Below, in pieces: positions 38,463-59,508 of a stretch of DNA of 64,000 nucleotides. How positions within the stretch are numbered: position 1 is the first letter of the stretch; every line of letters begins with the position of its first letter. Source of the stretch: an uncultured Bacillota bacterium (GTDB lineage Bacteria; Bacillota; Clostridia; Christensenellales; UBA1242); assembly GCA_946495675.1 (NCBI GenBank), contig CAMMDQ010000001.1, positions 146,225 to 210,224 on the forward strand, given 5' to 3'. The position numbers and the translations under genes were made by a program. The notes under the pieces were generated by a model that worked only from the letters and a program-made list of their open reading frames with translations, did no database searches and was not told where the DNA came from.

Positions 38463-41400
38463 ATGAGAAGCATCTATACATATTACAAAGAACGATTGAT
38501 AGAAATTAGCGGAAAAAATAGAAGTTTATACTTAAAAAATTTCAACAAAAAAAATGGTTATGATGTTGGAAAACTATTATATCAAAATCAAGAGAGTGTT
38601 GCCGAACTTGTTGACAATCTTTGGAATGGCAAAACCTCTTCTTTTGAACTTATAAGTAAAGATAAACTTGAATATTTTATTAAAAATTTGAAAATTGATG
38701 ACAGCCAAGTGGATTTGACGGATACTCAGGCTAGGCAGAAATTTGAAAGGCAAAAAAGAGAACAGGCAAAAAAGAGTTTGGAACAGGAAATCAAAAATCT
38801 TATTGCCTTGAAAAGAGAGATTGAAGAGATTGAAAAAGAGACTGGAAGAAGCGAGCTTTATCTATGCTATCCTTTTGTGTTTGGCAATGTAAAAAATTAT
38901 ACTTTCAGAGCACCACTTTTGATGTTTCCAGTTGAAATTGATATTGAAGGGGACAATTATGCAAGCATAAGGCTAAAGCAAGCAGAGCCAGTTCAGCTTA
39001 ACAAGGCACTTCTTTATGCATTTGCTGATGCAAAAAGATTGAATCTTGAAGATATTGAAACTGAATTTGATTGTTTGAAAACAAAGTTTTCATCATTGCA
39101 AAAGCTGCTTGACTATCTTGCCGGTTTTGGCATAAAAATCTCGGCACCACAACGCAAAAACATATTCCCTTTTGACAGATACTCTGAGCCAAAGCATAAT
39201 CAAGCTCCAGAGATCAAAAATCTGTGCCTGCTGGCCAGGTGCTCGCTTGCAAATTCAATCTATAATGATTATGCAAAGCTTGAAAAACGCCACCTTGCAA
39301 ACGAGTCAATAAATCAGCTTTTAAACAGAAAAGTGAAAAAATTTAAGTCTGGCAAAGCTCAAGATTTGTATCTTATAAACAATGTTGACTATGCTCAAGA
39401 GCAAGTTGTGAGAAAAGTCAATGATAGTGGAAACATGGTTATTTATGGGCCACCAGGGACAGGAAAGAGTCAAACCATTGTCAATGTTATTTCCGATGCT
39501 ATGGCAAAAGGTAAAAAAGTTTTGGTTGTTTCTCAAAAGAAAGCTGCTTTGGATGTTGTTTTCAATCGTTTGGGAGTGCTAAACAACAGGGCAATGTTTG
39601 TTGTTGATTCAGAAAAAGAAAAGCGTGGTTTTTACGAGCGTTGCCTTTTGACTCATCAACAGCTTACAGATTTCAAAATAGATGAAGAAGTGTTCAAAAA
39701 ATTTGACGAACTTTCTGCCGCACTTGCTCAAGAAGAGGCAAAACTCAAAGCGATAAATGATTGTCTCACAAGCAAAACACCTTTCGGGCTTTCGTTGCAA
39801 GAGATGTATTACAACTCCTTTAAGATCGGCAAACATTCGGTTGAATATTCAATTTATCAACAGATGCTTGGCAGCAAGAAGTTGCTATCACTAAATTTCG
39901 AGCAGTTAAGTCAAGCACTTAGCGTTTTAGATGAAGAAAATAAAACGCAACTTTATTATAATTTCATCGAGAATAAAAAGAAAAATCCTTTTATTGATCA
40001 TTTAAATTTACAAGCTGGACTTCATGTGATTGCTCAGGCTCAGTCAAAACTGGCACAACTTTCTTCAACAAGGCAGGCATTGTTTGATGGAGCTCAATAC
40101 AAATACAGCAGACAGATTTTGACATATTTTAGCAAAATTCAAGACAAAACAAATTACAATGCCCTTAAAAAGATGGTTGCAAAGCTTGAATATCCTGCTT
40201 CTAGCAAGTTTTTGAATTTGTCTCATATTGTTTTCCCACTTTATCCTTTTGCAAAAGCGGCAATGAATAAAAAGGAGAAAATAGTTGAAAAAGAATTTGA
40301 AAAAACAGTTGAGGCACTTGGTGAATATCTTGCCGATTATCAGTTTTTAAAGGATATTTTGAGTCAAGAAGGTTATCTTATGGCTCTTGATGGTCTTTTA
40401 AGCGGAAACAGCAATGTTTTGAAACTTTTATTAAATGCTGTTGAAAACTATATTGGCAATCAAGACATAAATCAAACTTTGAATAATTTGACCGAAAATC
40501 AAAAATTTGTGCTCAATTTCGCATATAAACATGCAAACTCTTATTCAAAATATTTGGAAATTTTAAACAAATTGTTGCCGCTAAGGATTTATCACGAAAT
40601 TTTGACTTATGAAGAAAAAATGAAAAATGAGCTTGCTGGGGCGGTGGATTTTGAAAATATACGAGCAAGAATTGTTGCACTCAAAAAAGATCAAAACGCT
40701 CTTTCAAAGCAGATTTCTTTGCAAAGTTTTGTCAAAGACTATCAAGCAATGATTGATGGCAGTGTGGCTTCTAAAGACTTTTTGTATCAAATTTCAAAAA
40801 AGCAAAATTTCTGGAGCATAAGAAAGATGATGGAGGTGTATGGCGACTATCTTTTCAAAATGTTCCCTTGTTGGCTTTTATCGCCTGAAAATGTTTCATC
40901 AATTTTGCCACTTGAAAAAAATATGTTTGATATCGTGCTGTTTGATGAAGCTTCGCAAGTTTTTATTGAGAACACAATTCCTTCAATATTCAGAGGAAAA
41001 TGTGTGGTTGTTGCAGGAGATGCAAAACAACTGAGACCAACAACAACCTTTATGAAACGATACATGGGTGCAAACCTTGACGATGTTGACCTGTCAACGC
41101 AAGCTGCACTTGAAGTTGAAAGTTTGCTAGATCTTGCTGTTTCAAGATTTAACAGCGCAAACATAACCTATCACTATCGAAGCAAAAATCAAGAGCTGAT
41201 CGACTTTTCAAATAAAGCTTTTTATAGCGGTAATTTGCAGATCGCTCCAAATGTTTCAAAAAATCTAAAACAAAAACCAATTGAAAGAATATTAGTTGAC
41301 GGGAAATGGGCAGATCGTAAAAATATGGCGGAAGCCAAAAAGGTTGTTGAGCTTACAAAACACATTTTGAAAACAAGAAAAAATAACGAAACCATAGGAA

Positions 41401-42233
41401 TTATAACTTTCAACTCTGATCAAGAAACACTGATTGAAGATTTGTTTGACAAAGAGTGTTTCAAAGACGAAAGTTTCAGGGTCAAATTTATCAAAGAAAC
41501 CAGCAGAAAAGAAAATGATGAAGATGTCAGCTTGTTTGTCAAAAACCTTGAGAATGTTCAGGGGGATGAGAGAGATATAATCATCTTCTCAATCGGCTAT
41601 GCAAGAAATGAATTTGGCAAAGTCAATGCTTCATTCGGTTCTCTTTCCAACGAAGGCGGCGAAAACAGGCTTAATGTTGCCATCACCAGAGCAAAACAAA
41701 AAATCTATGTGGTAACAAGCATTGAGCCAGAAGAACTTAAAGTGGATGGCGCAAAGTTTGCAGGACCAAAACTTTTGCGAAGTTATCTTGCTTATGCAAG
41801 GGCTGTTTCAAAGGGAAAAACGGACGAAGTTCGTTCAATTCTTGACAGCTTTAACGATCGGATTCTCAAAACCAACAAATTGATTGGGCTCAAGCCGCTT
41901 GAAGAGCAGATTGCACATAAACTTTCAAAACTTGGCTATGATTGTCAGGTAAACTTGGGAAATTCTGACAGCAAAGTTTCGGTTGCAATTTATGATAAGA
42001 AACTTGACAGATATATCTTAGGTATTGAGACTGATCAAACGGCAATCAACAGCAGCCCTTCGGTTCTTGAGAGAGATGTTTATCGCAACGAATTTTTGAA
42101 ATCTCGTGGCTGGAAGATTGTTAGAGTTTGGAGTAGAGATTGGTGGCATAACTATAAGGGTGTGACATCTATGATTGTCAAAGAGATTGAAAAGCAACGA
42201 AAAATACTTGAAAAAAGTGCAAAAAAAGTGTAA
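38463..42233 (+). CDS. SF1 (Upf1/DNA2-like) helicase with a long N-terminal region and a C-terminal endonuclease-fold module
   Basis: Helicase motifs are GPPGTGKSQT (Walker A), VLFDEASQ, VVAGDAKQLRPT, YHYRS, VQGDERDIIIFS and RLNVAITRAK. The C-terminal GWKIVRVWSRDWW resembles DUF559/Vsr-like REase-fold tails. The N-terminus (YYKERLIEISGKNRSLYLK) resembles DUF4011-type proteins. Confidence 0.75.
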   Translation: MRSIYTYYKERLIEISGKNRSLYLKNFNKKNGYDVGKLLYQNQESVAELVDNLWNGKTSSFELISKDKLEYFIKNLKIDDSQVDLTDTQARQKFERQKREQAKKSLEQEIKNLIALKREIEEIEKETGRSELYLCYPFVFGNVKNYTFRAPLLMFPVEIDIEGDNYASIRLKQAEPVQLNKALLYAFADAKRLNLEDIETEFDCLKTKFSSLQKLLDYLAGFGIKISAPQRKNIFPFDRYSEPKHNQAPEIKNLCLLARCSLANSIYNDYAKLEKRHLANESINQLLNRKVKKFKSGKAQDLYLINNVDYAQEQVVRKVNDSGNMVIYGPPGTGKSQTIVNVISDAMAKGKKVLVVSQKKAALDVVFNRLGVLNNRAMFVVDSEKEKRGFYERCLLTHQQLTDFKIDEEVFKKFDELSAALAQEEAKLKAINDCLTSKTPFGLSLQEMYYNSFKIGKHSVEYSIYQQMLGSKKLLSLNFEQLSQALSVLDEENKTQLYYNFIENKKKNPFIDHLNLQAGLHVIAQAQSKLAQLSSTRQALFDGAQYKYSRQILTYFSKIQDKTNYNALKKMVAKLEYPASSKFLNLSHIVFPLYPFAKAAMNKKEKIVEKEFEKTVEALGEYLADYQFLKDILSQEGYLMALDGLLSGNSNVLKLLLNAVENYIGNQDINQTLNNLTENQKFVLNFAYKHANSYSKYLEILNKLLPLRIYHEILTYEEKMKNELAGAVDFENIRARIVALKKDQNALSKQISLQSFVKDYQAMIDGSVASKDFLYQISKKQNFWSIRKMMEVYGDYLFKMFPCWLLSPENVSSILPLEKNMFDIVLFDEASQVFIENTIPSIFRGKCVVVAGDAKQLRPTTTFMKRYMGANLDDVDLSTQAALEVESLLDLAVSRFNSANITYHYRSKNQELIDFSNKAFYSGNLQIAPNVSKNLKQKPIERILVDGKWADRKNMAEAKKVVELTKHILKTRKNNETIGIITFNSDQETLIEDLFDKECFKDESFRVKFIKETSRKENDEDVSLFVKNLENVQGDERDIIIFSIGYARNEFGKVNASFGSLSNEGGENRLNVAITRAKQKIYVVTSIEPEELKVDGAKFAGPKLLRSYLAYARAVSKGKTDEVRSILDSFNDRILKTNKLIGLKPLEEQIAHKLSKLGYDCQVNLGNSDSKVSVAIYDKKLDRYILGIETDQTAINSSPSVLERDVYRNEFLKSRGWKIVRVWSRDWWHNYKGVTSMIVKEIEKQRKILEKSAKKV

Positions 42234-44507: not shown

Positions 44508-44640
44508 AATTTAAAATAATTTAAATCGCTCGCTGCTTTTTGTGATAATAAAATTTCAAAAAATAGAAAGAATCAAAGAAGAAAAACTTTAACATTTAGG
44601 TAATTGAGCGGCAAACACAAAGAAAATGATGTTGTCAATA

Positions 44641-44662
44641 AAAAAACTCGCATATAAGCGAG
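44641..44662 (-). terminator. Terminator retained downstream of the orphan tRNA 3' half
   Basis: On the minus strand, CTCGC-TTATAT-GCGAG is followed by T6, beginning 7 nt after the CCA end. Confidence 0.65.
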
Positions 44663-44668
44663 TAATAC

Positions 44669-44715
44669 TGGAGCTTATAATGGGACTTGAACCCATGACC
44701 TCAGCCTTACCAAGG
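44669..44715 (-). pseudogene. Orphan 3' half of tRNA-Thr(GGU): anticodon loop through CCA (half A')
   Basis: The minus strand reads CC TTGGTAA GGCTG AGGTC ATGGG TTCAAGT CCCAT TATAAGC T CCA. tRNA similarity stops 5' of the anticodon loop. Confidence 0.85.
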
Positions 44716-44830
44716 ATTGCGACACCTTAGAAAGAATTAGATAGTCAATTTTAGTAAAATTTAGGCGTAATCAGTCAAAAATCAGTTCGCAAATTTTATT
44801 ATCTTCTATAATTTTATAGGAGGTAATAAT

Positions 44831-45997
44831 ATGAAAAATATTGTAAGAAAAACAAGAAGACCCAATGGTGAAGGTAGTATTTATTATTGTAATGGTTATT
44901 GGTGTTGTAAAAGGTGGACTATTGAAAATGGAATTAAGAAACGAAAAACAATATATGCAAAAACAAAAATTGAGTTAATGAAAAAGTATATTGAGAAATT
45001 TGGACAGCCAATCCAAAATGACATTTTAGAAAATGATTTTTGTGATAGTATGCTATTTTGGATTTTGAATGTTAAAAAATTATATGTTTCTTCCAGAACA
45101 ATCGCTGGTAACATATCAATATTTAGAAATTACATTATATCTTATTTTACCAACAAAAAAATCTGTGAAATTGGGAATGAAACACTTGTGCTATATTTTA
45201 ATGTTTTACTAGATAAACAAGTAACAAAAAATAGTTTTTATAAGTGTAAATTTCTGCTAAGTCAGTTTTTTAGATATTTAAAACAAAAGGATAATTCATT
45301 TAATTATCCTTTTATTTTATCTAATATAAAATATAAGGGGATATATAGAAATACAAACGATTACAAGGCTATTCCTGTTGAAATTCGTGAAAAGTTTATA
45401 ACCTTGTTAAATAAAAATAAACTAATCAAAGTTGTTTGTTATCTAGGGTTATATGCAGGTTTAAGAATAGGAGAAATTTTAGCGTTAAAATGGGCAGATG
45501 TAGATTTTGATGATAAAGTGATAAAAATTAGAAGGTCTCTAACTTCTGAATTAAGTTTTGATAATAATGGACAAACAATTAAAATGATTAATGTATTAGG
45601 TTCTACAAAAACAGAATGTAGTTTAAGAAATGTTGCTATACCAAATAGATTATTAAAATGTCTTTTGGATTGGTATAATGAAATGTCGTTTTTACACAAA
45701 ATCAGCAATAATTCCAAACCAATATATGTTTTAGGTGGAGTAGAGCCTAGGACTTACACATCTATAAGTAAAAGGTTTCATAGATTTTTAAAATATAACA
45801 ACTTTGATAAATATAACATTCATTTTCATACTTTACGACATACTTATGCAACAATGCTATTAGAAAAAGGAACAAACCCTAAAATCGTTCAATTCCTATT
45901 AGGCCATAGAAGTGTGAAAACAACTTTGGAAATATATAATAGTATAGTTTCTGACAGTTCTGAAATCAAACATATTGTTAAACTATTGTTTGATTAA
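44831..45997 (+). CDS. int: Tyrosine-type site-specific integrase
   Basis: The C-terminal catalytic region reads GLRIGEILALKWADVD...HTLRHTYATMLLEKGTNPKIVQFLLGHRSVKTTLEIY. An arm-binding-like N-terminus reads RRPNGEGSIYY. An AGGAGG RBS precedes the start. Confidence 0.9.
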   Translation: MKNIVRKTRRPNGEGSIYYCNGYWCCKRWTIENGIKKRKTIYAKTKIELMKKYIEKFGQPIQNDILENDFCDSMLFWILNVKKLYVSSRTIAGNISIFRNYIISYFTNKKICEIGNETLVLYFNVLLDKQVTKNSFYKCKFLLSQFFRYLKQKDNSFNYPFILSNIKYKGIYRNTNDYKAIPVEIREKFITLLNKNKLIKVVCYLGLYAGLRIGEILALKWADVDFDDKVIKIRRSLTSELSFDNNGQTIKMINVLGSTKTECSLRNVAIPNRLLKCLLDWYNEMSFLHKISNNSKPIYVLGGVEPRTYTSISKRFHRFLKYNNFDKYNIHFHTLRHTYATMLLEKGTNPKIVQFLLGHRSVKTTLEIYNSIVSDSSEIKHIVKLLFD

Positions 45998-46285
45998 TTA
46001 TAAGTGCGTTTTTAATTAATTTGGATTGTTCGAGATTATTGAAAATATGTAAAGGGAAAGATTTAATTACATATTGTAAAAGAATATTTAAATGAATTTT
46101 CTTAAAATTTGTCAGCAAATCTTGAAATTTTATATTTTTATATAGTATTATAGGAATAATAATATAAATTTTATTTTCAAAAAAATGTAAATCTAATTGT
46201 ATTTTATAAAAAAATAGTCTATAATATTTGTGTAAGTTGCAAAAAAAATGCAACAAGCATATTTTATATAAAGGAGAATTATATT

Positions 46286-47626
46286 ATGCTTTATTTTAAT
46301 ATTAAGAATTTTAGAGTTTTTAATGAAGAAACATTTTTAGATTTAAGGGCAAATAAAAGAAAAACAAAATATGCAGAAAATTTAATAACAAAGGATTATA
46401 TTAAAAAAAAGAAAAATATTTTAGAAAAATTATTACCTTATTCTGTAATATATGGCGGGAATGCTTCGGGTAAAACATCTATTATTAAAGCTATGGCATT
46501 GTTAAGAAATATAATTTTAGATGGTCGCATATATTCTGATAATCCTCAAGAAATTTTACACTCTTTAGAATTGTTCCCATACTTACATGACTATAATAAA
46601 TACATCGAACCAATGAAATTAGCTATTGGATTTATTTATAAAAAGAAAAAATATGAGTTTGTATTAAAAATAAAGTGCATGTTAAGAGAAGAATATTTTT
46701 ATGCCGACAGGGAGATTTTTGAAGAACAGTTGTTTATAAATGATGAAGAAATATATTTTAGGAATAGTACAAGTGTTATATTTAATGGTGAAAAATTTGA
46801 AATAGGCAAAGATGAAGGTCAAGAACATATTACAAAGGAAGAATTATTTTTGTATTCACAATTTAAAACTGGCAAATATAATGCTGATTTTCAAAATATA
46901 TTATATTGGTTTAGATTTCATTTTGTTGTTGTAGATGATATATCAAATCTAAGAACTACAGTTGAAGGTAGTTTGCCACCATATTTAAAAAGCATTGACT
47001 TAAGAAATAAAATAATTGATGCAGTTACAAATTTATCTGATTTTGGACCTCAAGATATTTTCTATAGAGTAAATGCAACTGAAGGCGGAAATAGCACTGA
47101 AATGAGAGCTCATTATAATATAAAGGGACACCCTAAATTAGGAATTGACACACCTGCCATTAATACTGAATCTACAGGAACTATAAAGCTAGTGAATATA
47201 GCACTTTTTCTAGTGGATAGTTTGCTGAATGGTAATACTGTTGTAATAGATGAATTTGATTCATCATTGCATTTTGCTCTTATAAAAGAAATTGTTAATT
47301 TATACACAGATAATGAAATCAATTCGGGGAAAGGTCAAATAATTTTTACATCTCATAATCCTATTTTTATTCCATTAGTTAAGATTAGAAGGGATCAGAT
47401 TTATTTCATTGAAAAAAATTCGGACAATTACTCTAGTTCTCTATATTCATTGTCAGATTTTCCATCAGAAGATGTGCGAACCAGTGAGGCGTTTATTAAA
47501 AATTATTTAGATGGTAAATATGGTGCTCTACCATCTTTTGATTTTAAAAGTGAAATAAAAAAAGCTTTACTTATTATAAAAAGGTTAAGACAAGATGTCG
47601 AAAAAAATGCTGCCAGTAAGGCCTAA
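46286..47626 (+). CDS. AAA/ABC-type ATPase (AAA_21/AbiLi-like)
   Basis: Walker A is GGNASGKTS, Walker B with D-loop is VVIDEFDSSLH, and the H-loop is FTSHNP. An AAAGGAG RBS precedes the start. Confidence 0.8.
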   Translation: MLYFNIKNFRVFNEETFLDLRANKRKTKYAENLITKDYIKKKKNILEKLLPYSVIYGGNASGKTSIIKAMALLRNIILDGRIYSDNPQEILHSLELFPYLHDYNKYIEPMKLAIGFIYKKKKYEFVLKIKCMLREEYFYADREIFEEQLFINDEEIYFRNSTSVIFNGEKFEIGKDEGQEHITKEELFLYSQFKTGKYNADFQNILYWFRFHFVVVDDISNLRTTVEGSLPPYLKSIDLRNKIIDAVTNLSDFGPQDIFYRVNATEGGNSTEMRAHYNIKGHPKLGIDTPAINTESTGTIKLVNIALFLVDSLLNGNTVVIDEFDSSLHFALIKEIVNLYTDNEINSGKGQIIFTSHNPIFIPLVKIRRDQIYFIEKNSDNYSSSLYSLSDFPSEDVRTSEAFIKNYLDGKYGALPSFDFKSEIKKALLIIKRLRQDVEKNAASKA

Positions 47627-48275
47627 AAGAAAATTTGAGCACCAAATTTTTGCTTATTATGAAGGAGAACAGGAAGAAGAATATTTCTCTCATTTAAAAA
47701 CATTAATCAATGAGCACGTAAAAAATAATTTAAAAATTAAAATAGTTCCAAAAAATTGTGGAGGTGGAAATCCTAAGACCCCTGTATTAACAGCAATAAA
47801 AAACTGTAGTGCCAATAAGACTCCGCTTGTTGTGTTTGATTTTGATAATAAAAAAAAAGAATTTGAAGAAGCTATTGACTTATCAATAAAAAATAAATTT
47901 AACATGGGATATTCCAACATTAATTTTGATTATTGGTTGGTCTTACATAAACTAGAAAAAAACAAGATTATTTATGGTGAAAAAAGTAGTAATGATGCTT
48001 ATGTAAAAATTCTTAAAGAAGTTTATCAACTTTCAGATAGGGATGATATAAAAAATTCAGATATTATTAAAAAGATAGTTTCTAAAATAACCCTTGATGA
48101 TGTTTATCATGCTATTGATTGTTGTAAATTAATAGAGAAACGAAATAAATCAACTCCAGAGAAAAAATGCTATACTCAAAAAAATAATATATATTATACA
48201 AATCCTGATATGCAAATTTATAAAGTTGTAGAAAAGTTATTAAATAAATGTTTAAAAAAAACTAAAAGTAGATAA
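47595..48275 (+). CDS. RloB/AbiLii-like (Toprim-like) protein
   Basis: The N-terminus RPKRKFEHQIFAYYEGEQEEEYF fits the RloB pattern (k+....ilivcEGe.tE..YF). VVFDFDN supplies a DxD motif. The gene overlaps the ATPase gene by 32 nt. Confidence 0.7.
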   Translation: MSKKMLPVRPKRKFEHQIFAYYEGEQEEEYFSHLKTLINEHVKNNLKIKIVPKNCGGGNPKTPVLTAIKNCSANKTPLVVFDFDNKKKEFEEAIDLSIKNKFNMGYSNINFDYWLVLHKLEKNKIIYGEKSSNDAYVKILKEVYQLSDRDDIKNSDIIKKIVSKITLDDVYHAIDCCKLIEKRNKSTPEKKCYTQKNNIYYTNPDMQIYKVVEKLLNKCLKKTKSR

Positions 48276-48470
48276 ATAACAAAATTTGACAGTTCCACTG
48301 ACTAATTTTTTATCCTAGTAGGACCAATTGACCCCAATTACACAGAATTAGACCGAAATAGATAGTAAATTTTAGTCTTTTCACTTTTGATAAAAAACGG
48401 TTAAAAAATCTCTATAATGACGATAGTTCAAAAATAAAAATGGCTCTATAAAATAAAAGTAAATTTTAGT

Positions 48471-48520
48471 AAAAAATAAAACCCTTTAAAGTGGCTAAAT
48501 GCCTTTATTTTAAAGGGTTT
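48471..48520 (-). terminator. Terminator of the island-borne tRNA-Thr
   Basis: AAACCCTTTAAA (48479-48490) pairs with TTTAAAGGGTTT (48509-48520). A T-run follows on the minus strand. Confidence 0.6.
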
Positions 48521-48528
48521 TATGTGCT

Positions 48529-48604
48529 TGGAGCTAACGAGCAGATTCGAACTGCCGACCTTTACATTACCAATGTAATGCGCTACCTACTGCGCCACGT
48601 TAGC
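48529..48604 (-). tRNA. tRNA-Thr (anticodon GGU), intact, CCA encoded
   Basis: The minus strand reads GCTAACG TG GCGC AGTAGGTA GCGC A TTACA TTGGTAA TGTAA AGGTC GGCAG TTCGAAT CTGCT CGTTAGC T CCA. This is 76 nt and all four stems pair. Confidence 0.9.
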
Positions 48605-48675
48605 ATATTAAATTGGCTCCATAATTTTGGGGTATATTTAGTTTTTTATTTAGTCTTTTTTAGGCGCTAAAATTT

Positions 48676-48715
48676 CCTTACCAAGGCGGTGCACTACCGA
48701 CTGTGCTACATTAGC
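48676..48715 (-). pseudogene. Orphan tRNA-Thr 5' half B (acceptor through anticodon loop)
   Basis: The minus strand reads GCTAATG TA GCAC AGTCGGTA GTGC A CCGCC TTGGTAA GG, after which tRNA similarity ends. No matching 3' half is present in the window. Confidence 0.8.
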
Positions 48716-48776
48716 ATATTCAGTTTTTGAGTTAAATTTTGTTGATTTTCGAGTGATAAAATTTGCCATTTTTTAT

Positions 48777-48815
48777 CTTACCAAGGCTGTGCGCTACCTG
48801 CTGCGCCACATAAGC
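48777..48815 (-). pseudogene. Orphan tRNA-Thr 5' half A, the partner of the 3' half at 44669-44715
   Basis: The minus strand reads GCTTATG TG GCGC AGCAGGTA GCGC A CAGCC TTGGTAA G. It is complementary to half A' (CAGCC/GGCTG and GCTTATG/TATAAGC). Confidence 0.85.
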
Positions 48816-59127: not shown

Positions 59128-59508
59128 GGGGGCGTTACTGGTTTCGACAGGAAGCGTTGGATAAAGCGTAAAGCATGTGGTAGTCGTCCATGCCTACCTA
59201 AAAATGGACAGCGAAAATAAACGCAAACAACGAAAATCGTTACGCTGCTGCAATAGCTGCCTAACAAACAATTTGTTCAACTATTTTGAACAGCTCAGGT
59301 TTTAATGTGGCTTATTAATTCTTGGGTTTTAAGTTTAGCCAAAATTCTGCTGTAAGTTTGCCTTTCTAGCTGCAGAAAAAACAAAAGGCTGGTCAAAATC
59401 GTTTGTTTATGGACTAAATTTTGACAAGATCGCAAACATAAACTAAACATGTAGAAAAACTTTGTTCAAGTTTTTTGGAAGCGGGTTCAAATCCCGCCGT
59501 CTCCACCA
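59128..59508 (+). ncRNA. ssrA: tmRNA (SsrA)
   Basis: The 5' end GGGGGCGTTACTGGTTTCGACAGG pairs with the 3' end ...GGTTCAAATCCCGCCGTCTCCACCA, with a G3:U pair. The tag ORF GCG AAA ATA AAC ... GCT GCC TAA (59211-59264) encodes AKINANNENRYAAAIAA. Confidence 0.92.

Follow-up and report, generated by a model that had tools for sequence, protein, structure and literature searches.

What has broken a threonine transfer RNA (tRNA) gene in two in the middle of its anticodon loop, and what may have taken over from it? The question is raised by a 64,000-nucleotide (nt) stretch of an uncultured Bacillota bacterium (contig CAMMDQ010000001.1, positions 146,225 to 210,224; hereafter the window), in which the two halves of a tRNA-Thr(GGU) gene lie on either side of a block that encodes an integrase. 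The best overall explanation, to which we give a probability of roughly 80%, is that an islet of 3,971 base pairs (bp) inserted in the anticodon loop, that the target was left unrepaired, that the islet's own tRNA-Thr(GGU) replaces it, and that the locus has a nested history. An initial annotation, made from the sequence alone, had proposed an integrase island in the anticodon loop with only about 10 bp in common with a target that stays broken; the junctions, as analyzed with ARAGORN and Rfam, support that proposal.

A split tRNA gene and its anticodon-loop core

The tRNA-related features of the locus are as follows, with the chromosomal gene called A, an earlier tRNA called B and the intact element-borne tRNA called C.

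44646..44663, minus strand: intrinsic terminator that ended the original chromosomal tRNA-Thr gene A (found by terminator scan, with 4 G-C pairs in a 6-bp stem before a T run)
44669..44715, minus strand: orphan 3' half of A, with anticodon loop, 3' anticodon stem, variable loop, T arm, 3' acceptor strand and CCA (tRNA-Thr profile positions 23-76, E = 3e-11)
44706..44715, no strand: core copy 1, CTTACCAAGG, left element junction (sequence repeat)
48476..48523, minus strand: terminator hairpin of element tRNA C, a 15-bp stem then a U run (RNA fold -18.9 kcal/mol, z = -5.25)
48529..48604, minus strand: intact element-borne tRNA-Thr(GGU) C (ARAGORN; Rfam tRNA 70.4 bits, E = 2.8e-14)
48605..48676, minus strand: 72-nt spacer from the element tRNA to the right-hand core (homology with L001 and L095 runs through it and ends at the core)
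48677..48686, no strand: core copy 2, right element junction (sequence repeat and end of homology)
48677..48715, minus strand: orphan 5' half of tRNA-Thr(GGU) B, which belonged to an earlier resident element (match to positions 1-42 of the tRNA-Thr profile, E = 6e-9)
48716..48776, minus strand: 61-nt spacer, right-end stub of the earlier resident element (comparison with L102/L103)
48777..48786, no strand: core copy 3, outermost junction, within the 5' half of the original gene A (sequence repeat)
48777..48815, minus strand: orphan 5' half of chromosomal tRNA-Thr(GGU) A, with acceptor strand, D arm, 5' anticodon stem and loop (profile positions 1-42, E = 5e-10)

Read on the minus strand, the 5' half of A (48815->48777) is GCTTATG TG GCGC AGCAGGTA GCGC A CAGCC TTGGTAA G and the 3' half (44715->44669) is CC TTGGTAA GGCTG AGGTC ATGGG TTCAAGT CCCAT TATAAGC T CCA. 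All acceptor positions (7/7) and anticodon-stem positions (5/5) pair between them, their overlap is CCTTGGTAAG and their join is 76 nt long. ARAGORN reads the joined molecule as tRNA-Thr(GGU), both as the bare join and within the in-silico excised locus. The perfect 76-nt cloverleaf that the initial annotation had drawn, joined at a 10-nt core, is thereby borne out together with the stem pairing, and the joined halves, whose failure in tRNA scoring, as it had stated, would refute its model, pass in ARAGORN. Its coordinates and sequences are accurate throughout, and the terminator that it placed behind the 3' half was found at 44663-44646.

The plus-strand core CTTACCAAGG occurs at three sites only in the window (44706, 48677, 48777), where 0.04 would be expected, and a count of three was reached by none of 100 shuffles; the 10-bp core duplication reported earlier therefore stands on re-examination. 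The copies at 48677 and 48777 have 11 nt in common. At some junctions of other loci the common sequence is TTACCAA only, so that this 7-nt anticodon loop is the sole sequence common to all junctions, and at the window locus identity widens to CTTACCAAGG. The invariant TTACCAA is a candidate for the crossover. Neither ARAGORN nor Rfam finds a tRNA at either element junction, where the core is 10 bp long. The 5' ends of the three tRNA units lie 100 and 111 nt apart, and all units are co-oriented. Since identical junctions recur in independent assemblies from several samples, they are no assembly artefact; the 5' half of A also occupies the identical position in every compared contig with an identical SufC neighbour that extends to the site (8/8).

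The mobile element and its own tRNA

The extent of the element follows from comparison with other loci, each designated by L and a number. Window positions 44669-48684 match L001, from another sample, with 99.95% identity over 4,016 bp between flanks that are unrelated on both sides: in L001, TIR and acetyltransferase genes lie on one side and AbiEii, T5orf172 and HsdM genes on the other. L001 encodes exactly the same integrase protein, and there the element is bounded by a tRNA-Thr 3' half and by a TTACCAA core, with a right junction that reads ...AAAATTTC CTTACCAA TTTAAAAAG... and lacks half B. Homology with L001 is lost exactly at 48684, and the relative in L095 (86% identical) ends at 48686. 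Because homology to both ends at the middle core, the mobile unit is 44716-48686, or 3,971 bp counting one core. At the level of sequence, these two settings show that the element has moved between genomic contexts.

The initial annotation had placed the right boundary at 48776, making half B and the 61-nt spacer a relic carried along from an earlier integration elsewhere. This larger unit (44716-48776) is an unlikely reading, as the near-identical copy in L001 stops at the middle core (48677-48686) without half B, the copy in L095 does likewise, and L102/L103 hold the 61-nt spacer with tRNA B at the same locus in a different element, with the present element absent. It gains some support from L004, which reads GGTAAAATTTGCTATTTTTTATC-TTACCAA-GGATTGCGACACC, one mismatch from the circular junction predicted for the larger unit (...GCCATTTTTTAT-CTTACCAAGG-ATTGCGACACC; the junction predicted for the 44716-48686 unit is ...TTTTTTAGGCGCTAAAATTTC-CTTACCAAGG-ATTGCGACACCTTAG). 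L004 thus joins a sequence like the 61-nt spacer, a core and the arm of the present element, which fits a tandem junction or a larger element; the same junction is, however, equally expected from a tandem array, and tandem spacer-core-arm junctions occur in L005, L006, L085 and L091. The unit of 61-nt spacer and B 5' half also adjoins elements with the 72-nt spacer in the window, L006, L091, L104 and L106, and such composites might sometimes move together.

The comparison of base composition suggested at the outset finds the insert (44716-48776) poorer in guanine and cytosine (GC), with 25.8% against 35.6% and 35.4% in the flanks (about 35.5%). The host flanks consist of housekeeping genes, with NDK, methyltransferase and NUDIX genes on the left and SufC/SufD on the right. 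Besides its tRNA, the element comprises the following features.

44716..44830, plus strand: left arm of the element (P-arm side of the element's attachment site, attP), with putative arm-type motifs AGAATTAGA and AATTTTAGTAAAA at 44733-44760 (sequence conservation)
44831..45997, plus strand: tyrosine integrase, 388 amino acids (aa) (Pfam Phage_integrase 4.5e-24, Phage_int_SAM_3)
46286..47626, plus strand: AbiLi-like ATPase, 446 aa, defence cargo (PADLOC AbiLi 4e-67; Pfam AAA_21 5.6e-22)
47595..48275, plus strand: AbiLii / RloB-like protein, 226 aa, defence cargo (PADLOC AbiLii 6.2e-13; Pfam RloB 8.1e-16)
48276..48475, no strand: conserved non-coding right-end region with direct copies of the left-arm motifs at 48344-48377 and 48462-48475 (9-13-mers common with the left arm)

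The three protein genes all lie on the plus strand and include no phage structural, lytic or conjugation genes. The AbiLi and AbiLii genes overlap by 32 nt in an operon-like manner; as an adjacent pair of AbiLi ATPase and AbiLii RloB-like genes they form an AbiL system by sequence, with a predicted anti-phage role. A small open reading frame at 45978-46256 on the minus strand, examined as a potential excisionase gene, gave no match in Pfam and is probably spurious. There was no DNA match to the element in the plasmid database, the phage database gave integrase matches only (at most 31% identity), and a metagenome scan with the integrase recovered one close relative only.

The integrase probably catalyzes insertion, with strand exchange within TTACCAA. 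The anticodon stem would provide the core-type sites in inverted orientation, in line with what generally applies to tyrosine recombinases and anticodon-loop sites. The repeated motifs AGAATTAGA and AATTTTAGTAAAA (44733-44760; 48344-48377, 48462-48475) are putative arm-type binding sites and, as they are present on both sides, the tRNA gene would lie inside attP. The left arm is identical in L001 and is kept upstream of integrases 73-100% identical; more distant integrases (at most 55%) have different arms. Family elements in L006 and L091 have right ends that match the right-end region (48276-48475) at 75-90% identity, and the 72-nt type of spacer is also found at the right end of other family members.

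tRNA C lies within these boundaries, 72 nt inwards from the right junction and in the orientation of the broken gene A, and it travels with the element in the different genomic context of L001. The annotation at 48529-48604 of an intact, sequence-distinct isoacceptor tRNA-Thr(GGU) with its own terminator is confirmed by ARAGORN, Rfam and the hairpin (z = -5.25). The 3' halves of A and C are different sequences, and the attachment (att) junctions have only the core in common; because attachment site and target share no more than this core, neither junction rebuilds a tRNA. We infer that tRNA C is the functional replacement that supplies tRNA-Thr(GGU), and that, by analogy with the phage systems discussed below, the host would need it. 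It is presumably expressed: every unit points the same way, and the tRNA strand carries no predicted terminator from the original promoter region as far as tRNA C, so read-through from the host promoter is possible.

Selection on such tRNAs is apparent across the family. In an alignment of ten distinct tRNA-Thr(GGU) sequences (joined A and B counted), 99.5% of stem cells are paired, compared with about 26-46% when the partners are slid by 1-3 columns, and compensatory changes occur in 13 of the 21 stem pairs. This compensatory conservation of the cloverleaf argues that the element tRNAs are under purifying selection as tRNAs. Self-protection, whereby the A-T closing pair of C in place of CC/GG might block further insertion, is ruled out by C-like orphan halves (L090 at 1222, L086 at 6102). 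Sub-threshold Rfam matches to HPnc0260 (44569-44707 and 48425-48566; 40 and 35 bits, below the gathering score of 59) come from the antisense of tRNA 3' halves and represent no real small RNA.

The far-end position of the intact tRNA, the integrase beside a tRNA fragment and the low GC content are also what a classical tRNA island would display, in which the tRNA at 48529-48604 would have been rebuilt from host 5' and island 3' parts and 44669-44715 would be the displaced original 3' end. We regard this as very improbable. The whole of tRNA C goes with the element into an unrelated context together with 72 nt upstream, no repeat beyond the loop links the displaced 3' half to that of C, and the displaced half pairs perfectly with another 5' half 211 nt further out. 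In a classical island a junction regenerates the tRNA and a direct repeat of part of it remains; here the repeat is 10 bp and the target is split. The scheme moreover cannot yield orphan 5' halves.

Nesting and the history of the locus

The arrangement in the window is one instance of a widespread architecture. The integrase has 565 relatives, of which about 35, counted as clusters, are 70-84% identical. Every locus long enough has the layout core, arm, integrase, cargo, terminator, tRNA-Thr(GGU), 41-72-nt spacer and core, a statement that covers at least ten distinct elements whose integrase-distal end is included, with integrases 37-100% identical and belonging to two clades. The layout was seen with integrases 100, 82, 78, 73, 55, 45 and 37% identical as well as with a clade of 453-aa integrases. 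The integrase-distal tRNA-Thr(GGU) is intact in all but one element, the exception being a copy in L090 that was split by a later insertion. Family cargos are typically defence-related: AbiL, a YobI-type ATPase, a 1,278-aa helix-turn-helix (HTH) protein, type I restriction-modification with T5orf172, Mrr, DndB with a methyltransferase, and Schlafen/AlbA_2. In L095 (7079-13772) and L096 (6180-12873), the family AbiL element is followed, at a core without a tRNA half, by genes for DUF3990, an HTH protein, a tubulin-like protein (PF00091), DUF4268 and a MobL relaxase. This block may be a larger mobilisable element on the same site and hint at how the islets are transferred.

Insertion into the tRNA of an element can be seen directly, since one element is found with its terminal tRNA both intact and split. 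The element with integrase P0024 and the 1,278-aa gene has an intact terminal tRNA in L091; in L090 the same element has the tRNA 3' half only, abutting another integrase, and of the six orphan 5' halves further on, the innermost is its match (7/7 and 5/5 pairs). Comparison of these two genomes shows that element tRNAs are re-used as insertion targets. Units made up of a 5' half, TTGGTAA and a spacer, repeated about every 80-110 nt, form stacks of two to six upstream of a single intact tRNA in L024, L085, L086, L090, L091, L100 and L102, and orphan 3' halves mark element boundaries on the integrase side. The innermost pair in L090 follows a strict nested order, as do the pairs found in L006, L024 and the window.

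Several of these loci have features of their own. The stack in L090 (19662-20190), with six orphan tRNA-Thr 5' halves in a row about 80-110 nt apart, is the longest found; it contains the B 5' half twice, and its outermost, A-like half has a 1-nt deletion in the D arm. In L086 (5836-6133) the intact tRNA G has exactly the 5' half and 72-nt spacer that make up the first orphan unit beside it, and a near-identical predecessor appears to have been replaced by insertion into its tRNA. L030 (1-1510), from a related metagenome-assembled genome (MAG) with a SufC 78% identical, carries an intact A-like tRNA and then, behind a 63-nt spacer and a core, a 5' half that has visibly decayed, GCTTGTGCGGTTTAGCAAGAAGCACGCCA; the neighbouring cargo is a 391-aa protein of tandem sequence repeats.

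The history of the window locus is recorded in half B. The tRNA-Thr profile match confirms this orphan half, which the initial annotation had described as ending at a third core, and no 3' partner for it exists within the window; a B 3' partner is present in L006 (7/7 and 5/5 pairs). L102/L103, whose SufC is identical to that of the window and which lack the present element, read from SufC as A 5' half, 61-nt spacer, B 5' half, 61-nt spacer and intact tRNA B, followed by a terminator, a Schlafen/AlbA_2 (SLFN_AlbA_2) gene and a gene for a 453-aa integrase. This integrase belongs to a different clade and has a Phage_int_M domain, as in the approximately 39%-identical integrase matches. The 61-nt type of spacer lies between the core and intact tRNA B in L102/L103 and before B 5' halves in L006, L090 and L091. 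Because L102/L103 hold an element with intact tRNA B at the same locus, half B with its spacer (48687-48776) is best read from these sequences as the in-place stub of an earlier resident element, outside the present one. It was thus not imported as a relic, as had been supposed; the alternative of tandem accretion, offered as a fallback, comes close to the favoured history, which is one of nested plus tandem insertion.

In that history, which is reconstructed by comparison, an element with the 453-aa integrase, the 61-nt spacer and tRNA B would first have entered chromosomal gene A. The present element would then have entered the anticodon loop of tRNA B. Finally, the B 3' half, cargo and integrase of the older element would have been lost, presumably via recombination between the two left-hand cores, leaving the layout A5'-core-spacer61-B5'-core-[element]-core-A3'. 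It was also considered that the element might be locked in, as its excision alone would leave a dead B5'/A3' chimera; this chimera has two mismatches, yet ARAGORN reads it as a tRNA.

Occupancy of the site varies between strains. The locus was compared across 9 contigs with an identical NUDIX neighbour and 21 contigs with an identical SufC neighbour, among which there were at least four occupants: the present element, the tRNA-B element (L102/L103), an element with a G-type tRNA (L104) and an element with a different arm (L012, L014). In L012 (2256-2530) and L014 (895-967), which have the identical NUDIX neighbour, the A 3' half and TTACCAA are followed by the different arm, CTTGCCAAGCACAAAAATAGGATTTTGCTCT..., and a similar arm abuts a C-like 3' half in L090 (1224-1260). 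The L012/L014 arm is that of a second element type on the same 7-nt core, with no integrase immediately adjacent.

A scan of genomes for A-type tRNAs, using the joined 34-mer, gave an exact match in 16 MAGs. In 15 of these there is an intact tRNA 1-3 mismatches from joined A, and the remaining contig is cut inside the gene. Most A-type copies in those MAGs are element-borne, being followed by a spacer, a core and an orphan 5' half; seemingly unoccupied A-type genes in L018, L023 and L026 are not syntenic with the window locus. The initial annotation had looked to relatives for an uninterrupted attachment site (attB), and would have taken its model as refuted if all relatives showed the same arrangement without an integrase and none had an intact allele. 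Integrases are present and intact A-type tRNAs occur in 15 of the 16 matching genomes, but no empty allele was found at the window locus.

The three co-oriented tRNA-like units at 100-111-nt spacing could be taken for a native tandem tRNA-Thr array that decayed by duplication and deletion next to an unrelated island. This is more improbable still, since the junctions are precise and the element is present elsewhere: each truncation falls exactly at the same anticodon-loop core, the missing 3' half is exactly at the other end of the element, and such units occur at the ends of mobile elements in many unrelated contexts. A functional split tRNA, with halves transcribed separately and then joined as in Nanoarchaeum, is hardly credible, because the host is bacterial, the insert supplies an intact isoacceptor, the separating element is also found elsewhere, and the best duplex between the sequence after the 5' half and that before the 3' half (-16.5 against -10.8 +/- 3.1 kcal/mol, equalled by 3.7% of shuffles) is an interrupted A/U-rich pairing far from the half ends and not a contiguous G+C-rich complement, even though the halves are perfectly complementary and keep their native flanks, and though this duplex does slightly better than shuffles. 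The partners in this duplex are the 61-nt spacer (48716-48776) and the left arm (44716-44790), and the pairing probably reflects shared A/T-rich motifs of the AAATTTTA type.

On the preferred reading, insertion of a replacement-carrying islet, site-specific recombination at the anticodon-loop sequence would insert the element in a tRNA-Thr(GGU) gene, and the element's own tRNA-Thr(GGU) gene would take over supply from the broken one. As each element brings a copy of its own target, the site would renew itself, and elements would nest and accumulate in tandem. Several observations weigh against this reading. Strict nested order fails for the outer halves in L090, which do not pair in order, and deletions, tandem insertions or the hitch-hiking of stubs must also be invoked. 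No empty site with intact A was found in the 9 and 21 contigs, all those extending to the site being occupied. No excisionase or transfer gene is recognisable among the element genes, no unambiguous circular junction of the element was recovered, and the 72-nt spacer contains no convincing promoter. Coverage of the genome is 64 kilobases (kb), so that another tRNA-Thr(GGU) gene may exist elsewhere. The L004 junction described above counts on the same side.

Tentatively, and at rather less than even odds, the islets may be regarded as a self-renewing landing pad and take-over system. A newcomer would break the resident tRNA-Thr(GGU), be it the chromosomal gene or that of a previous cassette, and would bring the sole intact copy; the need of the host would pass on to it, the older cassette would become dispensable and be lost, and the tRNA of the newcomer would become the next target, with the stack of about 100-nt units as a partly ordered record of replacements. 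If this were true, the site would be comparable in function to an integron of anti-phage systems that has a tRNA gene as its base.

Two neighbouring features complete the description of the window, elsewhere in which no integrase relatives of this family were detected. A transfer-messenger RNA (tmRNA) gene lies at 59128-59508, with the tag peptide ANNENRYAAAIAA; genes of this kind are often targeted by islands. Immediately to the left of the locus, positions 38463-42233 encode a 1,256-aa protein with DUF4011, AAA_11, AAA_12 and MTES_1575 domains in a helicase-nuclease-like architecture, which may be a chromosomal defence gene.

Comparison with known systems

The closest parallel is tRNA-dependent lysogeny, described in the actinobacteriophages Fionnbharth, LeBron, Gaia and others (Guerrero-Bustamante & Hatfull 2024, PMC10865867). 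The integrases of these phages use an 8-17-bp core in tRNA-Lys, tRNA-Ile2 or tRNA-Leu and leave the tRNA unrestored. Lysogens survive only with a phage tRNA of that isotype, as shown experimentally, and the authors suspect a wider occurrence, citing Lj965 (PMC10865867). By sequence comparison, the islet shares three of the defining features: a tyrosine integrase with an attB inside a tRNA gene, a short core with no rebuilt tRNA at the junctions, and a cognate tRNA on the element. It is not a temperate phage, as it has no phage structural or lytic genes and its best phage integrase match is 31% identical. Whereas the known cases are 40-80-kb temperate phages of Actinobacteria, the present element is a phage-free unit of 4 kb and three genes in uncultured gut Clostridia, targets tRNA-Thr(GGU) and carries its tRNA 72 nt from the core. 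In addition, the re-use of element tRNAs as targets, the nested arrays and the stacks of orphan 5' halves are not described in PMC10865867, and the requirement for the tRNA, experimental there, is deduced here.

Other systems are similar in part. The Lj965 prophage of Lactobacillus johnsonii, as cited in PMC10865867, reportedly does not rebuild its junction tRNA and carries a cognate tRNA; it is likewise a Firmicutes element with an unrepaired junction tRNA, albeit a prophage, and the comparison is by that citation only. In classical islands of tRNA and tmRNA genes, as outlined in the passages compared from the Islander database paper (PMC4383910), island sequence restores the split gene, and the regenerated gene and a displaced fragment mark the ends. 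On that outline, the islet has in common with them an integrase-borne insertion in a tRNA gene, crossover at the anticodon loop, low GC content and tandem accumulation at one tRNA gene, but it restores nothing and carries a whole separate tRNA gene instead.

In tycheposons of Prochlorococcus, according to the passages compared (bioRxiv 10.1101/2020.12.28.424599), partial tRNAs on the flanks act as the att repeat, beside a full-length tRNA; where a single tRNA is hit again and again, earlier arrivals are displaced inward, and remnants stay behind along with partial tRNAs. Like the classical islands, tycheposons rely on repeats of partial tRNAs to restore the gene. They too are small cargo or defence elements with tRNA-specific tyrosine recombinases, whereas those passages do not mention complete replacement tRNAs borne by the element or periodic stacks of 5' halves. 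The likeness to the AbiL abortive-infection system covers the cargo only and not the mechanism of integration. A literature search, of incomplete coverage, found no description of phage-free islets with a whole replacement tRNA, of nested insertion into element tRNAs or of periodic orphan 5'-half stacks.

These comparisons have practical consequences. Island finders keyed to a rebuilt tRNA and a displaced fragment will overlook such elements, and tRNA finders will overlook or misreport the orphan halves. For engineering gut Firmicutes, these integrases, whose 7-10-bp core lies in a conserved anticodon loop, are possible tools, provided that the element tRNA is supplied. The strategy of breaking a tRNA and bringing another has been known since 2024 for actinobacteriophages; the present finding suggests that it is also used by non-phage defence islets of gut Clostridia, with at least two integrase clades. 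Regeneration of the attachment site by the element tRNA would let elements nest and displace older ones, and would let the anti-phage systems at a single locus turn over from strain to strain. The class of mechanism is thus already known; what is new is the carrier, minimal defence islets in uncultured gut Clostridia, together with the target tRNA-Thr(GGU) and the self-renewing site of nesting.

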